Positions 17,794 to 22,573 of a stretch of DNA of 64,000 nucleotides are shown here, piece after piece. The notes under the pieces were generated by a model, which saw only the letters and a list, made by a program, of their open reading frames with translations, made no database searches and was not told the DNA's origin. Each line of letters begins with the position of its first letter. Position 1 is the stretch's first letter. Source of the DNA: Escherichia phage Phi1; the sequence record EF437941; one strand, given 5' to 3'. A program made the position numbers and the translations under genes.

Positions 17794-19845
17794 TTACATT
17801 TTAAATTTATCTGGCATTGCGTCTACAGATACCAGATCAGCGATAAGCTGACGTAGAGTTGCCTTATCTGCTTTCTTACGTTCGGTTTTAGCTTCGCTAA
17901 TGAAGCTGGAGAAAGACAGGTCAGAAGCAGGTTTAACAACACCTTCACGGATGAATGCATCACCGTCCGCGATCATCTCACCAGATTCTTGTAATGCTGC
18001 CAGTTCACTTTTGTTCATAATATGTGCCTCAATGTAATAAGTTTCTTGTGAATCCGTAGATGCCGTAGCACGAGTTACCGTATCAAAGGATAACACAACA
18101 CCGCGAGGAAGTAAAATCTCGCATTCTTTGTAAGCAAATGCTTTGTTACCTACTGGCAATACAGGGATGTTTTCCGCGCCAGCAATGGAGAAAGCAACAT
18201 TAGCGCCACCTTCACCGCGAGATCCAGCCATAGAATCTACCCCAGCAACGGCACTAGCCACGTTTGCATTCCAGCCGCCAAAAATGTTAGGTGCAAGGGA
18301 AGTGCTCACGTAGTTTTTAAAGTAAAACGCTTTTTGCTTACGTGCAGTTTCCCACATTTGAGACCGGAAGTCCATACCACGATACAGAATAGTACCCGGA
18401 TCAAGTTTAACGCCATAGTTAGAGAAGGCATTATCCAGTGCATCGCACATCTTGACCAATTCTTCTGGATCTGCGATTCCCTCAAACTCTTCCAGCTTGC
18501 GATCAGTTAGGAAGTTGTTCATATTGATGTATGCTGCATCGGCATATTCGCTCAACACAAAACCTTCCGCGCCCGGCAGATCAAGATCAATATCTGCCAT
18601 CATTTCACCCATGTTGCTAGCAATTGCTTCAAACATACCGGACGCAACATTACGAAGGGCATCGGTTTTAATCTGGGTGATATGACTACGCAGCATTTCA
18701 GCTTTTACATCTGCTGGCATAGACTGGTCTACTCGATCCATTGCCAGGGCGGTGATCTTGTTTTCGAATACTTCCTCGCTCATGATTTCTTTTAAGCGTT
18801 TGATTGATGCTGCGATAACTTCCGCAGACAACGGATCATATTGATCCTGAACTTTTACCAGTTCGCTTACTGCGTATTTTGCATCGGCTTCGCTTTCAAA
18901 AATAGTACGCATGAAACCATAGCGAGTGATAATATCACTTGTCCAGTCATTCAGAGAACGGGCGGTTGAACGTTCTAAGGCTTGACGGTCAATCAGAGTA
19001 TTAAACTGTTTCTTAGGTTCTGCTTCGGTGATATCTTCTTCCGGTTTAAGATTAATTTTTTCTGGATGATTCACATAGTCGCTGTTATAGGTCGCTTGAG
19101 TTTTCAGCATTTCTTCTTTAGTCAAACGAGATTTAGCCGCTACGCGTTGTTCCGCTTCCGCGTTTCGTTCTTCTTCTGACACAAGACTAGCCGCATATGC
19201 CTCATCTTTAGTCAGAGATTCACCAGTAGCCTTAGATACCCAGCGATCACCTAAATCACTTTCTACTTTAGTGAACAAGGATTCATCAAGTTTAATCCCT
19301 TTAATCTTATCAATCGCCATCCCGCGACGCTTGACAACAACTAAAGCGATCTTTTTGCTGGTCATTACTTCCTGCTGGAATACTTCAAACTTCGGTGTAC
19401 GACGCACCAAACGCTCTATAACGCGCTTAACCAGTTCGGTCTTACCTTTCATGCGGGATACGTTAAAACGGAACATAACAGCGTCTAATTGCGCTTTACG
19501 GGCTGTTTCCATAACCACATCAAACGCACTTGCCATAACTGCAATCGGGTTATCGCCTAGACCATTTTTAAGCTGTACAATACGACCGCTTTTGTTCATT
19601 TCGCACAGTACAACATGTGCGGTCTTGTCACCCATACGAATGATTTTAGGTGTTTTGTTGGTGAAGTTACAAAGACGGACAATCACATCTTTATCGCGTG
19701 TCTGTACTGCAAAAAGCTGTTTAGGATTCTGCTTCGGCTTTAAGCACTGTACCGGAGCAATACTGCCAAAGTTTTCTTCCTCTTCCGTCAACAGCCATTT
19801 CTCGAAAGATTCAATCATTAGATCGTCGATTTCTAAGTTAAACAT
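17794..19845 (-). CDS. alt: Alt ADP-ribosyltransferase
   Basis: 683 aa (T4 Alt is 682 aa); FTKVESDLGD, YRGMDFRS, AFYFKNYVSTSLAPNIFGGWN and EILLPRG match T4 Alt FTKVESKVGD, VFYFRNFVSTSLYPNIFGTWM and EVILPRG. Confidence 0.85.
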   Translation of the reverse strand: MFNLEIDDLMIESFEKWLLTEEEENFGSIAPVQCLKPKQNPKQLFAVQTRDKDVIVRLCNFTNKTPKIIRMGDKTAHVVLCEMNKSGRIVQLKNGLGDNPIAVMASAFDVVMETARKAQLDAVMFRFNVSRMKGKTELVKRVIERLVRRTPKFEVFQQEVMTSKKIALVVVKRRGMAIDKIKGIKLDESLFTKVESDLGDRWVSKATGESLTKDEAYAASLVSEEERNAEAEQRVAAKSRLTKEEMLKTQATYNSDYVNHPEKINLKPEEDITEAEPKKQFNTLIDRQALERSTARSLNDWTSDIITRYGFMRTIFESEADAKYAVSELVKVQDQYDPLSAEVIAASIKRLKEIMSEEVFENKITALAMDRVDQSMPADVKAEMLRSHITQIKTDALRNVASGMFEAIASNMGEMMADIDLDLPGAEGFVLSEYADAAYINMNNFLTDRKLEEFEGIADPEELVKMCDALDNAFSNYGVKLDPGTILYRGMDFRSQMWETARKQKAFYFKNYVSTSLAPNIFGGWNANVASAVAGVDSMAGSRGEGGANVAFSIAGAENIPVLPVGNKAFAYKECEILLPRGVVLSFDTVTRATASTDSQETYYIEAHIMNKSELAALQESGEMIADGDAFIREGVVKPASDLSFSSFISEAKTERKKADKATLRQLIADLVSVDAMPDKFKM

Positions 19846-19913: not shown

Positions 19914-20126
19914 TTATAATGCACCATCGAGCAATTGCTCTAAGGTGTATCCTGAATAGTCTTTTTCAATCAGGGTATATTTTCCTACTCGTTTAATACA
20001 ACCGCGCATTTCAACGTATTCTGCGTAGTTGATGGTACGAGTTGTTCCATCTTCCAGTAATGCAGTACCGATTTCGTTAATGCGGTCATAAGTTACGTCG
20101 GTAATGATGATTTCGATGTTAGCCAT
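19914..20126 (-). CDS. hypothetical protein (70 aa)
   Basis: ORF preceded by the conserved PeSL leader and RBS. Confidence 0.55.
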   Translation of the reverse strand: MANIEIIITDVTYDRINEIGTALLEDGTTRTINYAEYVEMRGCIKRVGKYTLIEKDYSGYTLEQLLDGAL

Positions 20127-20156
20127 TTGATACTCCTTAGTAGTTCGTTTCGGTAT

Positions 20157-20191
20157 GGGTGTATTATGATATACACCCTCTGTTATGTCAA
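20157..20191 (-). promoter_or_regulatory. PeSL-type early promoter cassette (stem-loop plus -35 TTGACA)
   Basis: Plus tgtcaa at 20186-20191 (minus TTGACA); palindrome gggtgtat-tatgat-atacaccc at 20157-20178; conserved leader gtttcggtatgggtgtattat and RBS before the ATG at 20126. Confidence 0.6.
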
Positions 20192-20198
20192 CAACTTT

Positions 20199-20378
20199 TT
20201 AGAACATTTTTGAAATTAATTTTGCTTTGATTTCGCAGAGAACACCTAAAGATTTCTCGTCACCCGCTTTTGCTGCTTCTGATTGCATTTTTGAAATGGC
20301 TTCAATGTCAGTGCAATTATAAGCCGCTTGAACTTTAGCGATTGCGATGATTGCCGATTCGATGGTTAAGTGTTTCAT
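20199..20378 (-). CDS. hypothetical small protein (59 aa)
   Basis: ATG 20376-20378 preceded by GGAGAATCAAAC leader; translation MKHLTIESAIIAIAKVQAAYNCTDIEAISKMQSEAAKAGDEKSLGVLCEIKAKLISKMF. Confidence 0.45.
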   Translation of the reverse strand: MKHLTIESAIIAIAKVQAAYNCTDIEAISKMQSEAAKAGDEKSLGVLCEIKAKLISKMF

Positions 20379-20415
20379 GTTTGATTCTCCTTTCGTTTCG
20401 GTATGTGTGTATTAT

Positions 20416-20440
20416 GGGGGATCACCGATCCCCCTGTCAA
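20416..20440 (-). promoter_or_regulatory. PeSL-type early promoter cassette
   Basis: Palindrome gggggatcaccgatcccc (20416-20434) abutting plus tgtcaa 20435-20440; conserved leader downstream. Confidence 0.6.
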
Positions 20441-20447
20441 CAACTTT

Positions 20448-21002
20448 TTAGTTATTTTTTAATTGCTCATCTTGCAATAGGGAAATCACATGCTGGCGAT
20501 GTTCTTCCGATTGAGGGACACCGAAAAAGTTTGTTTTGTAGAAATACTCTAATCGGTCTTCTCGTGTGCTCTCTTCCATCATGATCGCGGGTAGTCCGAG
20601 ATTTCGGAAACGTCGCTTTTCTGCTGGCGTAAAATCACTGTAATACAGCATAGAATCATCGTTACCAGCAATGCTAAACTCATCATTCATGAAGGAGAAT
20701 ATTGCGTTTAAACGCTGTTTACCGTCCACGATTTCGATCTCATAGCGAGAGCCATCATCAATCTTAGCCATTGCGATAGCACCAACCGGAAAATCATTAA
20801 TCAGGTTTTCGATAAACATACGTTTGTTTTCGGTGTCCCATACCAAAGGACGCTGATAATCTGGGTTCATGTTGATATAGCCATCTTCTAACCACGCCTC
20901 ATAAACAGAGATGACAAAGTTTTTAGTATTGGTATAGTAACGGCGTTTAGGCGTTAAACGGTTCATGTTATAGTCTCCTGAATGGATCATCACGTAAATC
21001 AA
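20448..21002 (-). CDS. DUF262 (ParB-like nuclease/NTPase domain) protein
   Basis: Motifs NPDYQRPLVWD and VDGKQRLNAIFSF match the DUF262 signature (FQR..W ... DGQQR). Confidence 0.65.
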   Translation of the reverse strand: MIYVMIHSGDYNMNRLTPKRRYYTNTKNFVISVYEAWLEDGYINMNPDYQRPLVWDTENKRMFIENLINDFPVGAIAMAKIDDGSRYEIEIVDGKQRLNAIFSFMNDEFSIAGNDDSMLYYSDFTPAEKRRFRNLGLPAIMMEESTREDRLEYFYKTNFFGVPQSEEHRQHVISLLQDEQLKNN

Positions 21003-21300
21003 TATCTTTTAAGAACTCATCCCATGAATGGCGGATATTGTTCTTAATTCTCCAGATAAGCGCAGGGATTGAACGCTCTCCCATCTGGAAGTAAGGATCA
21101 TATGATCCGTATGCCCAATATGCTACTACAATTCCACAATCAGCGCAATAATATTCTATTTCACTTGCTGGCGACCAAAGTCCATCAATATGATCGGTGA
21201 TCCTGCTTTCGATGTTATGGCTATGGCAATCAGGGCAACGGATGCAATGACCTTGTTTATCGTAATTTGACGTTAGCGAATACTTAAACAATCTCATCAT
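20968..21300 (-). CDS. zinc-ribbon protein (CxxC...CxxC)
   Basis: CIRCPDCHSH ... YYCADCG Cys pairs; overlaps neighbouring genes at both ends (coupled operon). Confidence 0.5.
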   Translation of the reverse strand: MMRLFKYSLTSNYDKQGHCIRCPDCHSHNIESRITDHIDGLWSPASEIEYYCADCGIVVAYWAYGSYDPYFQMGERSIPALIWRIKNNIRHSWDEFLKDIDLRDDPFRRL

Positions 21301-22013
21301 AGATCCTTATTGGCTTCAAATACTGCCTTTGCGAATCCTCGCGGGGTAAGTGACCTGATAGTCTTTGTTCTGGTTCCTTTCCCGCCTAGCTTAGAATGCT
21401 GTTTACTGTACCCTTTATTAATATGCAACGGTTTCTTTTCTGGCATTATAAAGCCTTGTCCGGTCCATAAGCAAGTCTTTTTCGGGTACATATCACGGGC
21501 GGCAATATACTCAGGAAACGTAGGATGTTTATCATCTTCCGGCAAATAACCGCCATATTCCCACGGATGGAACATGTAATCAGGCTTACGCCACATACTA
21601 GAGATAACGCTTACAGGATTCTCTATCATGTAGGGAACTCCTAGCCATTCACCCAAATAAGCGGTTATTTTAGCTGCCCGTACATCATGAACTTGAATCA
21701 ATGGTCCTTGTTCTCGTTTCTTTCGTTCAAAGTGTGCAGCGCCACTAACAGCTAAATTGGTGCACGGTGGGAATGCAAATATAATATCCGGTTTCCCCCA
21801 TTCAAGGTCCATTGCTCTTTCCAGCCAGTTCAAATCAATCCAGGTGTTTACATAAGTAATGTTTGGATGTTCAAATCTGGTATTATACTTTTTGTATGTA
21901 CCGTGGTCGGCGTCATCCGCATTAAAGCAGACTACCTTATGACCTGCTTTAGCCCATTCTAGCCCCATTATCCCCGATCCGTCAAAGTTGCAGAATATTA
22001 ATTTTTGTTTCAT
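21297..22013 (-). CDS. short C5-cytosine methyltransferase-like protein (putative)
   Basis: FCNFDGSGIMG (motif I-like FxGxG), IIFAFPPCTNLAVSGA (motif IV-like PC catalytic dipeptide), MIENPV (motif VI-like ENV). At 238 aa it is too short to hold a full target-recognition domain. Confidence 0.45.
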   Translation of the reverse strand: MKQKLIFCNFDGSGIMGLEWAKAGHKVVCFNADDADHGTYKKYNTRFEHPNITYVNTWIDLNWLERAMDLEWGKPDIIFAFPPCTNLAVSGAAHFERKKREQGPLIQVHDVRAAKITAYLGEWLGVPYMIENPVSVISSMWRKPDYMFHPWEYGGYLPEDDKHPTFPEYIAARDMYPKKTCLWTGQGFIMPEKKPLHINKGYSKQHSKLGGKGTRTKTIRSLTPRGFAKAVFEANKDL

Positions 22014-22255
22014 ATACGACCCTTTAACCCAGCACAGATTTTAGTCGGTTCTTTACCGTGCCACATTAAGTAAAGTCCGTTAATGCGACCTTGTTTTGTG
22101 TGTGATTCTTTTCTGATCTTCTTATAGTGTCGTGCTTCCTCAACTGATTGTTTAGAATACCAATCATAAAGGAAGAGGCACAAAGGCCAACCATTAGCGG
22201 CCTTAATGCAGTTATTAAGAAATTCCTTATTGCGTTTAATTAATTTTCTTTTCAC
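22010..22255 (-). CDS. hypothetical basic protein (81 aa)
   Basis: ORF translationally coupled to neighbours (4-nt overlaps). Confidence 0.5.
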   Translation of the reverse strand: MKRKLIKRNKEFLNNCIKAANGWPLCLFLYDWYSKQSVEEARHYKKIRKESHTKQGRINGLYLMWHGKEPTKICAGLKGRI

Positions 22256-22503
22256 GCTGCCCCCATTGGTTTGATAGTAACAGAATCTAAAAGACCTTTG
22301 TTAGCCAGTTCGCGGCAAGTTTTCAGATCCGTAACTTCCCAGCCAGCCGCAATCAGGTTATCGATGAGGCTGTTAGCTACTTCCTCGCTCATGAAAGAGC
22401 ACTGTTTGCCGATGGTGTAGCGCACACGATGTAATTTCAGTTTACGGAAGCCTTTAACGTTCAGGTCTTTAGCGATTTTCTTTGCGGTTTCGATGTTAGC
22501 CAT
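22252..22503 (-). CDS. hypothetical protein (83 aa), first gene of the operon
   Basis: Preceded by PeSL leader GGAGAATCAAACA and a promoter cassette. Confidence 0.55.
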   Translation of the reverse strand: MANIETAKKIAKDLNVKGFRKLKLHRVRYTIGKQCSFMSEEVANSLIDNLIAAGWEVTDLKTCRELANKGLLDSVTIKPMGAA

Positions 22504-22550
22504 TGTTTGATTCTCCTAAGTGGTATCTCGTTTCGATGGTTGTATTGTAG

Positions 22551-22573
22551 GGGGAGTTATCCTCCCCTGTCAA
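22551..22573 (-). promoter_or_regulatory. PeSL-type early promoter cassette
   Basis: Hairpin ggggag-ttatc-ctcccc (22551-22567) abutting plus tgtcaa 22568-22573. Confidence 0.55.

Follow-up and report, generated by a model that had tools for sequence, protein, structure and literature searches.

Five genes lie head to tail on the minus strand of Escherichia phage Phi1 DNA, and their products include a methyltransferase-like protein, a zinc-ribbon protein and a protein with a DUF262 domain. The question raised by this locus is whether the five proteins form a dedicated DNA- or nucleotide-modification or anti-restriction module, as the original prediction suggested, or whether the genes are independent acquisitions that share a transcript. 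The window, i.e., the whole stretch of DNA that was analyzed, comprises 64,000 nucleotides (record EF437941). Its source genome is that of a Krischvirus, an RB49-like coliphage, with 98.6% identity to GEC-3S. The five ORFs are located on the strand and at the coordinates that had been predicted, and the CDSs annotated in public records of Krischvirus (GEC-3S, TB34, ELT3 and SAP) agree with them. Flanked on either side by a PeSL promoter/stem-loop cassette, they constitute a single early transcription unit, with the following features in the order of transcription:

22544..22573, minus strand: upstream PeSL, -35 TTGACA, GGGGAGGATAACTCCCC, C, -10 TACAAT, with the stem-loop GGGGAG..CTCCCC; early promoter of the five-gene unit.
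22252..22503, minus strand: 83-aa protein (phrog_14908).
22010..22255, minus strand: 81-aa protein (phrog_7065); it starts with a GTG that overlaps the stop of the gene before it (GTGA).
21297..22013, minus strand: 238-aa compact Dcm-family DNA cytosine-C5 methyltransferase; the C-terminus bears IRSLTPRGFAKAV.
20968..21300, minus strand: 110-aa zinc-ribbon protein (109 aa from the second ATG) with the pattern CxxCxxC...CxxC (C19, C22, C25, C52 and C55).
20448..20966, minus strand: 172-aa stand-alone DUF262/ParB-like NTPase-fold protein with YQRPLVW, DGKQR and NFFGVPQSEEH; no nuclease domain.
20411..20440, minus strand: downstream PeSL, TTGACA-GGGGGATCGGTGATCCCCC-ATAAT; it terminates the five-gene unit and serves the next small gene as promoter.

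Head-to-tail overlaps of 4 to 35 nt had been described between these genes. Three 4-nt overlaps are indeed read from the sequence, at the junctions of the 83-aa and 81-aa genes (GTGA), the 81-aa and 238-aa genes (ATGA) and the 238-aa and zinc-ribbon genes (ATGA), but the 35-nt overlap does not exist. It is an artefact of taking the longest ORF, since the DUF262 gene starts in the public records at the ATG at 20966, with AGGAGA ahead of it, and encodes 172 aa; the 184-aa version, starting from TTG at 21002, was rejected. The zinc-ribbon stop and the DUF262 start are thus separated by a 1-nt gap.

The five-gene block is 97-99% identical across 55 Krischvirus records. An insertion of ~850 bp in ELT3, FL37 and ELT4, suspected from matches in two pieces, turned out to be a second match to the neighboring PeSL repeats, and the gene order in these phages is the same as in the window. 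An extra 79 bp in SAP, relative to TB34, was likewise rejected as lying inside the operon: it is a tandem duplication of the PeSL that follows the operon, and SAP and TB34 do not differ in the five genes.

At both ends of the unit, sigma70 -35 and -10 elements flank an intergenic G/C-rich stem-loop (22544-22573 and 20411-20440). The single PeSL promoter foreseen ahead of the operon is clearly recognizable: its hexamers match the sigma70 consensus at 11 of 12 positions, and the composite pattern is expected by chance 0 times. In RB49 and phi1, a PeSL has been shown to combine a promoter with a terminator, and modular shuffling of these elements has been described (PMC2839356). The unit in the window resembles the PeSL-bounded cassettes of these phages (PMC2839356, PMC4122927) in the sigma70 promoter with embedded G/C stem-loop at both ends, in its location in a hyperplastic region and in its small, translationally coupled ORFs. 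With five genes, it is longer than most of them; otherwise, there is no substantive difference. The locus is probably an early PeSL-to-PeSL accessory cassette of the Krischvirus hyperplastic region containing a compact Dcm-family methyltransferase, in which five independently acquired genes would have been joined by translational coupling without forming a dedicated multi-protein system.

The product of the largest gene belongs to a family of compact DNA cytosine-C5 methyltransferases that is very common in phages. The C5-methyltransferase-like motifs noticed earlier are all present and conserved among 75 diverse homologs (31-54% identity to the 238-aa protein). Motif I reads FDGSG at residues 10-14 (family consensus LFDxTG/SG). 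Motif IV is PPC(T), with the catalytic C84 invariant in 75/75 homologs, and motif VI is ENP, with E131 and P133 invariant and N132 present in 73 of the 75. Motif VIII QxRxR is absent, and a conserved K178-K179-T180 is found on the equivalent strand; K178 is conserved in 74/75 homologs, and the two lysines are predicted to bind the substrate. The subclade to which the protein belongs has Asn31 where strand 2 ends, in place of a conserved Asp.

The AF2 model of the 238-aa protein (pLDDT 91.2) has the fold of a C5-type class I SAM-dependent methyltransferase, extending past the Rossmann core, and its best structural matches in Foldseek are DNMT3B and DNMT3A (E 1.5e-8). C84 and E131, the motif IV Cys and motif VI Glu whose placement had been proposed as a check, occupy the conserved positions of this fold. 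Sequence-based comparisons with distant enzymes give weak signals. A profile of the diverse family, compared with the PDB, placed PPC, in the correct register, opposite PPCQ in DNMT2 and M.HaeIII (E 0.4-0.7, motifs I-IV), and hhalign of a close-homolog profile with the single E. coli Dcm sequence aligned motif IV only (PPC on PCQ, E 0.24). The sole match of this second profile in the PDB, a kinase, was spurious. Pfam PF00145 aligned over motifs I-IV with 15.0 bits (E 0.017), below the gathering threshold of 22. Single-sequence phmmer searches of PDB sequences with the 238-aa and 172-aa proteins found nothing; NCBIfam gave no match to the 238-aa protein and nothing useful for any of the five.

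Among phage proteins, the assignment is clear, as the 238-aa protein falls in phrog_757, the compact phage Dcm family, with an E of 9e-91. At 90% identity, the family comprises over 7,321 clusters, and at 50%, it comprises 1,956, nearly all of 200-280 aa; members are found in 1,523 of 50,697 phage records. RefSeq/GenBank records already label the gene DNA methyltransferase, Dcm or C-5 cytosine methylase, and one member of the family has been characterized by experiment, so the locus can no longer be regarded as lacking any described counterpart.

The absence of room for a canonical target-recognition domain (TRD), pointed out from the sequence, is real in comparison with M.HhaI: ~85 residues lie between motif VI and IRSLTPRG, versus ~150 in that enzyme. 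It does not set the protein apart from DNA methyltransferases in general, as its best structural matches, DNMT3A and DNMT3B, have a minimal TRD and yet methylate DNA. The catalytic domains of these two enzymes share 13-17% sequence identity with the 238-aa protein, which is ~50 residues shorter, has neither the regulatory domains nor a DNMT3L-type partner and carries Lys-Lys instead of the Arg-x-Arg of motif VIII. The canonical type II C5-methyltransferases of PF00145 (E. coli Dcm, M.HhaI and M.HaeIII), on the contrary, measure 327-472 aa; the phage protein lacks their 80-100-residue TRD as well as their QxRxR and, unlike the bacterial enzymes, is not accompanied by a cognate restriction enzyme or Vsr. 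A split enzyme like M.AquI, with the zinc-ribbon or the 81-aa protein as second subunit, was considered and rejected because the 238-aa protein has a C-terminal helix resembling motifs IX/X and because a homolog acts alone.

This homolog is the Dcm of K42, a T1-like, KarlJaspers-like phage of the Drexlerviridae, which is reported to trigger the retron Ec86/Eco1 (bioRxiv 10.1101/2023.08.16.553469). Expression of the 711-bp K42 gene alone increased the 5mC content of msDNA, as measured by LC-MS, and a quadruple mutant in C82, E128, K175 and K176 was dead (bioRxiv 10.1101/2023.08.16.553469); the result is echoed in PMC12916289. In the alignment, K42 Dcm is represented by a Warwickvirus Dcm of the same genus (236 aa, 711-bp gene), a proxy tied to K42 by genus, gene length and the four residue numbers and not by the K42 sequence. 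This protein is 55% identical to the 238-aa protein over the full length (E 3e-93), and through it, C82, E128, K175 and K176 align with C84, E131, K178 and K179 of the window enzyme. Both enzymes share the Asn and a DHG motif after strand 2, are encoded in early accessory regions and model onto DNMT3A. The segment between the strand at 180-185 and LGGK (~residues 185-215), presumed to be the target-recognition loop, is divergent between the Krischvirus and Warwickvirus proteins; hence, the methylated site may differ between the Krischvirus and the K42-type enzyme.

From the conserved residues and the K42 enzyme, we infer that gp238 is a DNMT3-like, SAM-dependent enzyme that methylates cytosine C5 in DNA. 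In the proposed mechanism, which is the canonical one, Cys84 (PPC) would attack C6 of a flipped-out cytosine and Glu131 (ENP) would protonate its N3, after which the methyl group of SAM would be transferred to C5, with Lys178 and Lys179 replacing the canonical motif VIII arginines. Gp238 probably needs no partner; at an early stage of infection, it would methylate phage DNA as it replicates, with host DNA as an incidental substrate, and this methylation would protect a short site from 5mC-sensitive restriction, whatever the dcm status of the previous host. A simple link between methyltransferase genes and restriction resistance was not seen among the Drexlerviridae of the BASEL collection (PMC8594841), which makes an anti-restriction benefit less certain. 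The site proposed for the enzyme of T1-like phages is CCWGG. This sequence is depleted, but CCSGG is equally depleted, so the counts are unusable for inferring the site of the enzyme. Literature searches found no experimental work on a Krischvirus methyltransferase or on phage DUF262-only proteins.

The product of the last gene consists of a DUF262/ParB-like domain alone. The DUF262 signatures had been recognized in the 184-aa version, and they stand in the corrected 172-aa product, which scores 72.9 bits against Pfam PF03235 (cutoff 33.2). YQR..VW and DGKQR are invariant across the DUF262 subfamily. The protein has the ParB/Srx fold, and its QR and DG(K/Q)QR motifs, checked against the ParB/NTPase core as had been proposed, align to that of BrxU and SspE. 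With its nucleotide-binding signature (QR...DGKQR) intact, the protein most likely binds or hydrolyzes an NTP, and it possibly binds DNA. Its PADLOC matches (NsnA, PD-T4-2_A and others) were set aside, having only the common domain behind them. The GmrSD-family type IV enzymes (BrxU and Eco94GmrSD) and SspE carry at their N-terminus the domain that makes up the entire phage protein, but they measure ~580-770 aa. The phage protein ends after DUF262, and no DUF1524/HNH nuclease is encoded in the operon or by its neighbors; without this domain, it cannot act by itself as a restriction enzyme. In this respect, it resembles the GmrS1-type ParB_n-only partners (PMC12373910), which are also DUF262-only proteins without a nuclease. 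Those are, however, host-encoded beside a DUF262+HNH partner, and no such partner is present in the operon or in the flanks examined. DUF262-only proteins of 160-190 aa form a clade that occurs in many T4-type phages. Within the cassette, a slight novelty is confined to the stand-alone DUF262 protein.

The zinc-ribbon protein was correctly recognized by its CxxC motifs: the cysteines of the CxxCxxC...CxxC pattern are invariant in the homologs of the related contig L012 and of the Nonagvirus JenK1. It belongs to phrog_2993 (E 7e-34) and weakly matches Pfam Zn_Ribbon_TF; its homologs occur in 291 phage records, and neither Dcm nor DUF262 genes neighbor them. In PADLOC, the 83-aa protein weakly resembles the C-terminal part of RT_UG35 (E 3e-5), and its homolog in L012 is 72% identical. 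For the 81-aa protein, which carries the same annotation in the public records, the L012 homolog is 68% identical.

Could these proteins nevertheless act together, with the zinc-ribbon or DUF262 protein supplying the target recognition that the methyltransferase is missing? The tight translational coupling behind one promoter, the retention of the block in 55 Krischvirus records and the very small TRD-equivalent region are in favor of such a dedicated modification or anti-restriction module, as are the two-gene GmrS/GmrSD systems, in which DUF262-only proteins can work with partners (PMC12373910). However, in a sample with ~12 loci from phages other than Krischvirus, the three genes for the methyltransferase, the zinc-ribbon protein and the DUF262 protein are found together in Krischvirus only. 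Profile HMMs gave zero cross-matches over independent loci, five with Dcm and seven with DUF262, in a sample (completed by JenK1 for the zinc ribbon) that is small and not a genome-wide statistic. The Dcm loci of SSE121, a T4-like metagenomic phage, a 48-kb Salmonella phage and a Warwickvirus contain no DUF262 or zinc-ribbon genes, and the DUF262 loci of RB43-like, P22-like, Vibrio prophage and metagenomic phages contain no Dcm. In Nonagvirus and Felixounavirus, zinc-ribbon homologs are present without Dcm or DUF262. Furthermore, contig L012 possesses the other four genes in the same order (56-72% identity) and no methyltransferase, the 81-aa and zinc-ribbon genes being directly coupled. The Dcm of K42, expressed without partners, methylates DNA, the example of DNMT3A/B indicates that a DNA methyltransferase can do with a minimal TRD, and PeSL co-transcription in RB49-type hyperplastic regions normally packages unrelated accessory genes (PMC2839356). 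The five-protein module is, hence, unlikely. The four-gene synteny in L012, for its part, could reflect function instead of common ancestry.

A role of the DUF262 protein in counter-defense is improbable as well. It could serve as a decoy that binds or co-assembles with host GmrSD, BrxU or SspE enzymes, or competes with them for a nucleotide or DNA ligand, neutralizing modification-dependent restriction that is possibly provoked by the phage's own 5mC. Such a role is consistent with a complete DUF262 domain with invariant QR/DGKQR and no nuclease, with BrxU and SspE being among its closest structural relatives and with the spread of the 160-190-aa clade over many T4-type phages. It would also suit the location of these genes in early accessory regions of several lineages, for example, in the P22-like ea region beside abc2 (anti-RecBCD) and Ead/Ea22. 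On the other side, SAP has the identical DUF262 gene, yet it is reported to be BrxU-sensitive. The invariant NTPase motifs suggest an enzymatic and not a purely steric role, and ParB-like domains serve many other functions (partition, transcription control and nucleases). An adaptive version, for which the chances are slim, combines the two ideas: in Krischvirus, the nuclease-less DUF262 protein, possibly with the zinc-ribbon protein, would neutralize sensors of 5mC or Dcm activity to which a phage with a Dcm is exposed, namely GmrSD/BrxU-like type IV enzymes and the retron Ec86/Eco1, native to the E. coli B strains used as hosts. If true, this would turn the cassette into a "modification plus liability-insurance" unit and make the DUF262-only clade a new class of phage anti-defense proteins.

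The modified cytosines reported in SAP (5hmdC and glucosyl-methyl-dC), in a genome without dCMP hydroxymethylase or glucosyltransferases (PMC13390438), might point, together with Asn31 in place of the conserved Asp, to an enzyme adding a non-methyl group (for example, hydroxymethyl or carboxymethyl), but this is highly improbable: TB34, a Krischvirus with a 100% identical operon, has canonical cytosines, with no modified nucleoside detected by HPLC/MS (PMC13390438), the K42 homolog, in which this Asn and the DHG motif recur, produces 5mC according to LC-MS, a site-specific post-replicative enzyme is unable to replace all cytosines, and the full T4-type modification set of SAP might stem from a co-purifying T-even phage. 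The TB34 result also counts against 5mC formation by the enzyme; methylation at a 5-bp site would, however, yield well under 1% 5mC.

With the reading of the locus as a cassette of independently acquired genes, a candidate new system is struck off, and the annotation becomes sharper for a gene block that every RB49-like phage carries, including several phages in therapeutic use. A fitting name for the 238-aa protein is compact Dcm-family C5 DNA methyltransferase. The compact Dcm family is a known trigger of the retron Ec86 and therefore bears on host-range prediction. E. coli B natively carries this retron (bioRxiv 10.1101/2023.08.16.553469), and as Krischviruses are propagated on E. coli B, their enzyme may not trigger it. 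The site of the Krischvirus enzyme could partly explain the behavior of these phages toward restriction systems and toward the native retron of E. coli B. The small nuclease-less DUF262 proteins, finally, represent a coherent clade in T4-type and temperate phages.

The phage is assigned by its sequence to Krischvirus, the RB49-like T4-type coliphages. A sequence search gave 98.6% identity over the 2.27-kb region with Enterobacteria phage GEC-3S, and the region is kept at 97-99% identity in 55 records. All five minus-strand ORFs of the original prediction are present and agree with the CDS calls of public records; the observation is confirmed, with one start codon corrected. The features are as follows.

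Genes of the five-gene unit and the PeSLs bounding it
22544-22573: upstream PeSL promoter, TTGACA + GGGGAGGATAACTCCCC + TACAAT
22252-22503, minus strand: 83-aa protein
22010-22255, minus strand: 81-aa protein
21297-22013, minus strand: 238-aa methyltransferase
20968-21300, minus strand: 110-aa zinc-ribbon protein
20448-20966, minus strand: 172-aa DUF262 protein
20411-20440: second PeSL, closing the unit

Read directly from the DNA, three junctions have start/stop overlaps of 4 nt (GTGA, ATGA and ATGA). Overlaps of up to 35 nt had been proposed; the 4-nt ones stand, while the 35-nt one came from a 184-aa ORF that is a longest-ORF artefact. The DUF262 gene starts at the ATG at 20966, 1 nt after the zinc-ribbon stop codon and preceded by the Shine-Dalgarno sequence AGGAGA, as in public records, and encodes 172 aa. 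A PeSL combines a sigma70 early promoter with a stem-loop terminator embedded in it, and such elements flank shuffled accessory modules in the hyperplastic regions of RB49 and phi1 (PMC2839356). The single promoter proposed for the operon is a textbook PeSL, and a pattern scan found no signal of comparable strength between the two PeSLs. Directly downstream (17794-19845 and 19914-20378, both minus strand) lie two more PeSL units, each with a single gene (ORFs of 59 and 70 aa), and an Alt-like ADP-ribosyltransferase of 683 aa, beyond which the GEC-3S annotation has a second ADP-ribosyltransferase.

The five cysteines of the 110-aa zinc-ribbon protein do not vary even among homologs with as little as 43% identity; Nonagvirus and Felixounavirus have homologs. 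For the 83-aa and 81-aa proteins, the only matches are to PHROGs of unknown function. The 83-aa product (22252-22503, minus strand) also weakly resembles, in PADLOC (E 3e-5), positions 722-785 of the 938-position profile of RT_UG35, a DRT defence reverse transcriptase, with which it could share a small domain.

Judged on sequence alone, the 238-aa protein is a borderline case: its Pfam PF00145 score is 15 bits, where the cutoff is 22, and searches of NCBIfam and PDB sequences returned no match. It does match phrog_757, "DNA methyltransferase" (E 9e-91). Clustering of its family gives over 7,321 clusters at 90% identity and 1,956 at 50%, almost all of 200-280 aa. The family is represented in 1,523 of 50,697 phage records, from Drexlerviridae, Dhillonvirus, Vequintavirus, Webervirus, Campylobacter phages and others, where its usual annotation is DNA cytosine methyltransferase or Dcm. 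When 75 members that share just 31-54% identity with the window protein are aligned, C84, E131, P133, P150, Y176, W183 and P191 prove invariant, and P82, N132, K178, T180, R220 and G226 nearly so. Neither an unrelated fold nor a cysteine away from the active site was found. The lack of room for a canonical target-recognition domain holds against M.HhaI, yet the closest structures, DNMT3A/B, are DNA methyltransferases in which this domain is minimal.

An experimental anchor is provided by the T1-like phage K42 (KarlJaspers/Bas06-like), whose 711-bp dcm gene was disrupted in all escapers of retron Ec86. Expressed by itself, K42 Dcm raised C5-methylcytosine in msDNA by LC-MS, and the C82A/E128A/K175A/K176A mutant was inactive; the effect needed the msDNA CCTGG motif, and the AlphaFold model superposes on DNMT3A (bioRxiv 10.1101/2023.08.16.553469). 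Activation of Ec86 by phage Dcm methylation was restated later (PMC12916289). Warwickvirus Phunderstruck, of the same genus and genome size as K42 and used here as its proxy, has a 711-bp gene whose product carries exactly C82, E128, K175 and K176; its full-length identity to the window protein is 55% (E 3e-93), with these residues aligned to C84, E131, K178 and K179. This places the window protein, as a predicted enzyme, in a phage Dcm family of which one member has been characterised and acts autonomously. The K42 target site should not be assumed for the Krischvirus enzyme, because the segment around residues 185-215 differs between the window and Phunderstruck proteins.

The hosts listed for the matching records show that several Krischviruses are propagated on E. 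coli B. These strains natively carry Ec86, triggered by a Dcm of this family (bioRxiv 10.1101/2023.08.16.553469). Either the Krischvirus site differs or the phage escapes the retron otherwise.

Residue 31 of the 238-aa protein (21297-22013, minus strand), at the end of strand 2, where the SAM ribose is usually bound, is Asn in the Krischvirus/Warwickvirus subclade and Asp in 71 of 75 diverse family members. After it, the subclade has D36-H37-G38, which does not vary, and a short insertion. The K42-type enzyme shares these features, so activity is evidently retained despite the Asn.

Among the backgrounds whose neighbours had Pfam labels, all three, unrelated to each other, have an HNH_3 (PF13392) endonuclease gene of 165-176 aa, 0-2 genes from the Dcm-family gene.

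HNH_3 genes in Dcm-family loci
L004: 5567-6097
L005: 3490-4020
L006: 5211-5708
L007: 3728-4225

This proximity may reflect chance, HNH homing endonucleases being common in phages, or a mobility association. The Krischvirus operon has no HNH_3 gene.

The hydroxymethylcytosine pathway is absent from RB49-type phages, whose DNA is considered unmodified (PMC2993671, PMC6563267). In a 2026 study, the cytosines of Krischvirus TB34 were canonical; for SAP, 99.96% identical to TB34, the study reported 5hmdC and glucosyl-methyl-dC, with pathway genes not identified and no leads from SNP analysis (PMC13390438). The five operon genes are identical in both phages, so the operon does not explain the difference. 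The sole sizeable difference at the locus is a 79-bp tandem PeSL duplication in SAP, directly downstream of the DUF262 stop codon (SAP locus L008 1501-1579 against TB34 locus L002 1500; equivalent to window ~20380-20447), which accounts for 79 of the 112 bp separating the genome lengths. A hypermodification role for the Dcm-like enzyme is very unlikely. That no modified nucleoside was detected in TB34 is compatible with 5mC at specific sites that make up well below 1% of the cytosines.

Against maximal-order Markov expectations for window 1-64000, restriction sites are strongly avoided: GAATTC (0 observed, 17.3 expected), CTGCAG (0, 6.1), CCWGG (26, 67), CCSGG (11, 31) and GGCC (29, 70). GATC is not avoided (363, 336). 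The CCNGG depletion could stem from restriction avoidance or, should the phage Dcm act on these sites, from deamination of 5mC.

The DUF262 identity proposed for the 172-aa protein is borne out. Pfam GmrSD_N/DUF262 matches far over threshold (E 5e-20); YQR..VW, DGKQR and N..GVPQSEEH are invariant in the stand-alone subfamily, whose profile matches the solved DUF262 proteins BrxU (E 4e-5), SspE (E 0.008) and two others, with the QR and DG(K/Q)QR motifs of BrxU and SspE in register. The 172-aa protein has close relatives, 160-190 aa long, in T4-type phages that infect Enterobacter, Yersinia, Pectobacterium, Pantoea, Klebsiella and Citrobacter, and also in a P22-like phage (ea region, near abc2 and Ead/Ea22) and a Vibrio prophage. 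It is a genuine ParB-like domain protein.

In the loci sampled outside Krischvirus, Dcm-family genes have no DUF262 or zinc-ribbon gene beside them in Salmonella phage SSE121, a T4-like metagenomic phage, a Salmonella phage of 48 kb and a Warwickvirus; stand-alone DUF262 genes lack Dcm in RB43-like, P22-like, Vibrio-prophage and metagenomic phage contigs; the JenK1 zinc-ribbon homolog has neither. With tblastn and profile HMMs on six-frame ORFs, no Dcm and DUF262 co-match was found outside Krischvirus in any fetched locus. In the phage of the metagenomic ENA contig k141_110561, about 70% identical in DNA to Krischviruses, positions 23-1522 hold the 83-aa (72%), 81-aa (68%), zinc-ribbon (66%) and DUF262 (56%) genes in the same order and no methyltransferase gene. 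The 81-aa and zinc-ribbon genes are directly coupled there by a 4-nt overlap, which makes the methyltransferase a precise gene-sized indel in an otherwise syntenic string; an additional 46-aa ORF precedes the DUF262 gene.

These separate distributions, the autonomy of K42 Dcm and the bundling of unrelated accessory genes in PeSL units make a cassette of independent genes the best reading. Cooperation of the operon proteins as a module is improbable: the methyltransferase, DUF262 and zinc-ribbon genes co-occur in Krischvirus alone, among about a dozen loci, and the contig phage has the other four genes without the methyltransferase, although their leftover synteny could hide a functional link. 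Still less probable is that the stand-alone DUF262 protein counteracts defences sensing the phage's own Dcm activity.

The domain recognition of the original prediction was good and its observation real. An undescribed DNA-modification or anti-restriction module lacks support. The methyltransferase, a predicted enzyme, is a new addition to a phage Dcm family that is known, has an experimental anchor and already carries this annotation in GenBank. The stand-alone DUF262 protein, for which no functional study of phage representatives was found in the literature, is the sole part of the operon with some novelty.
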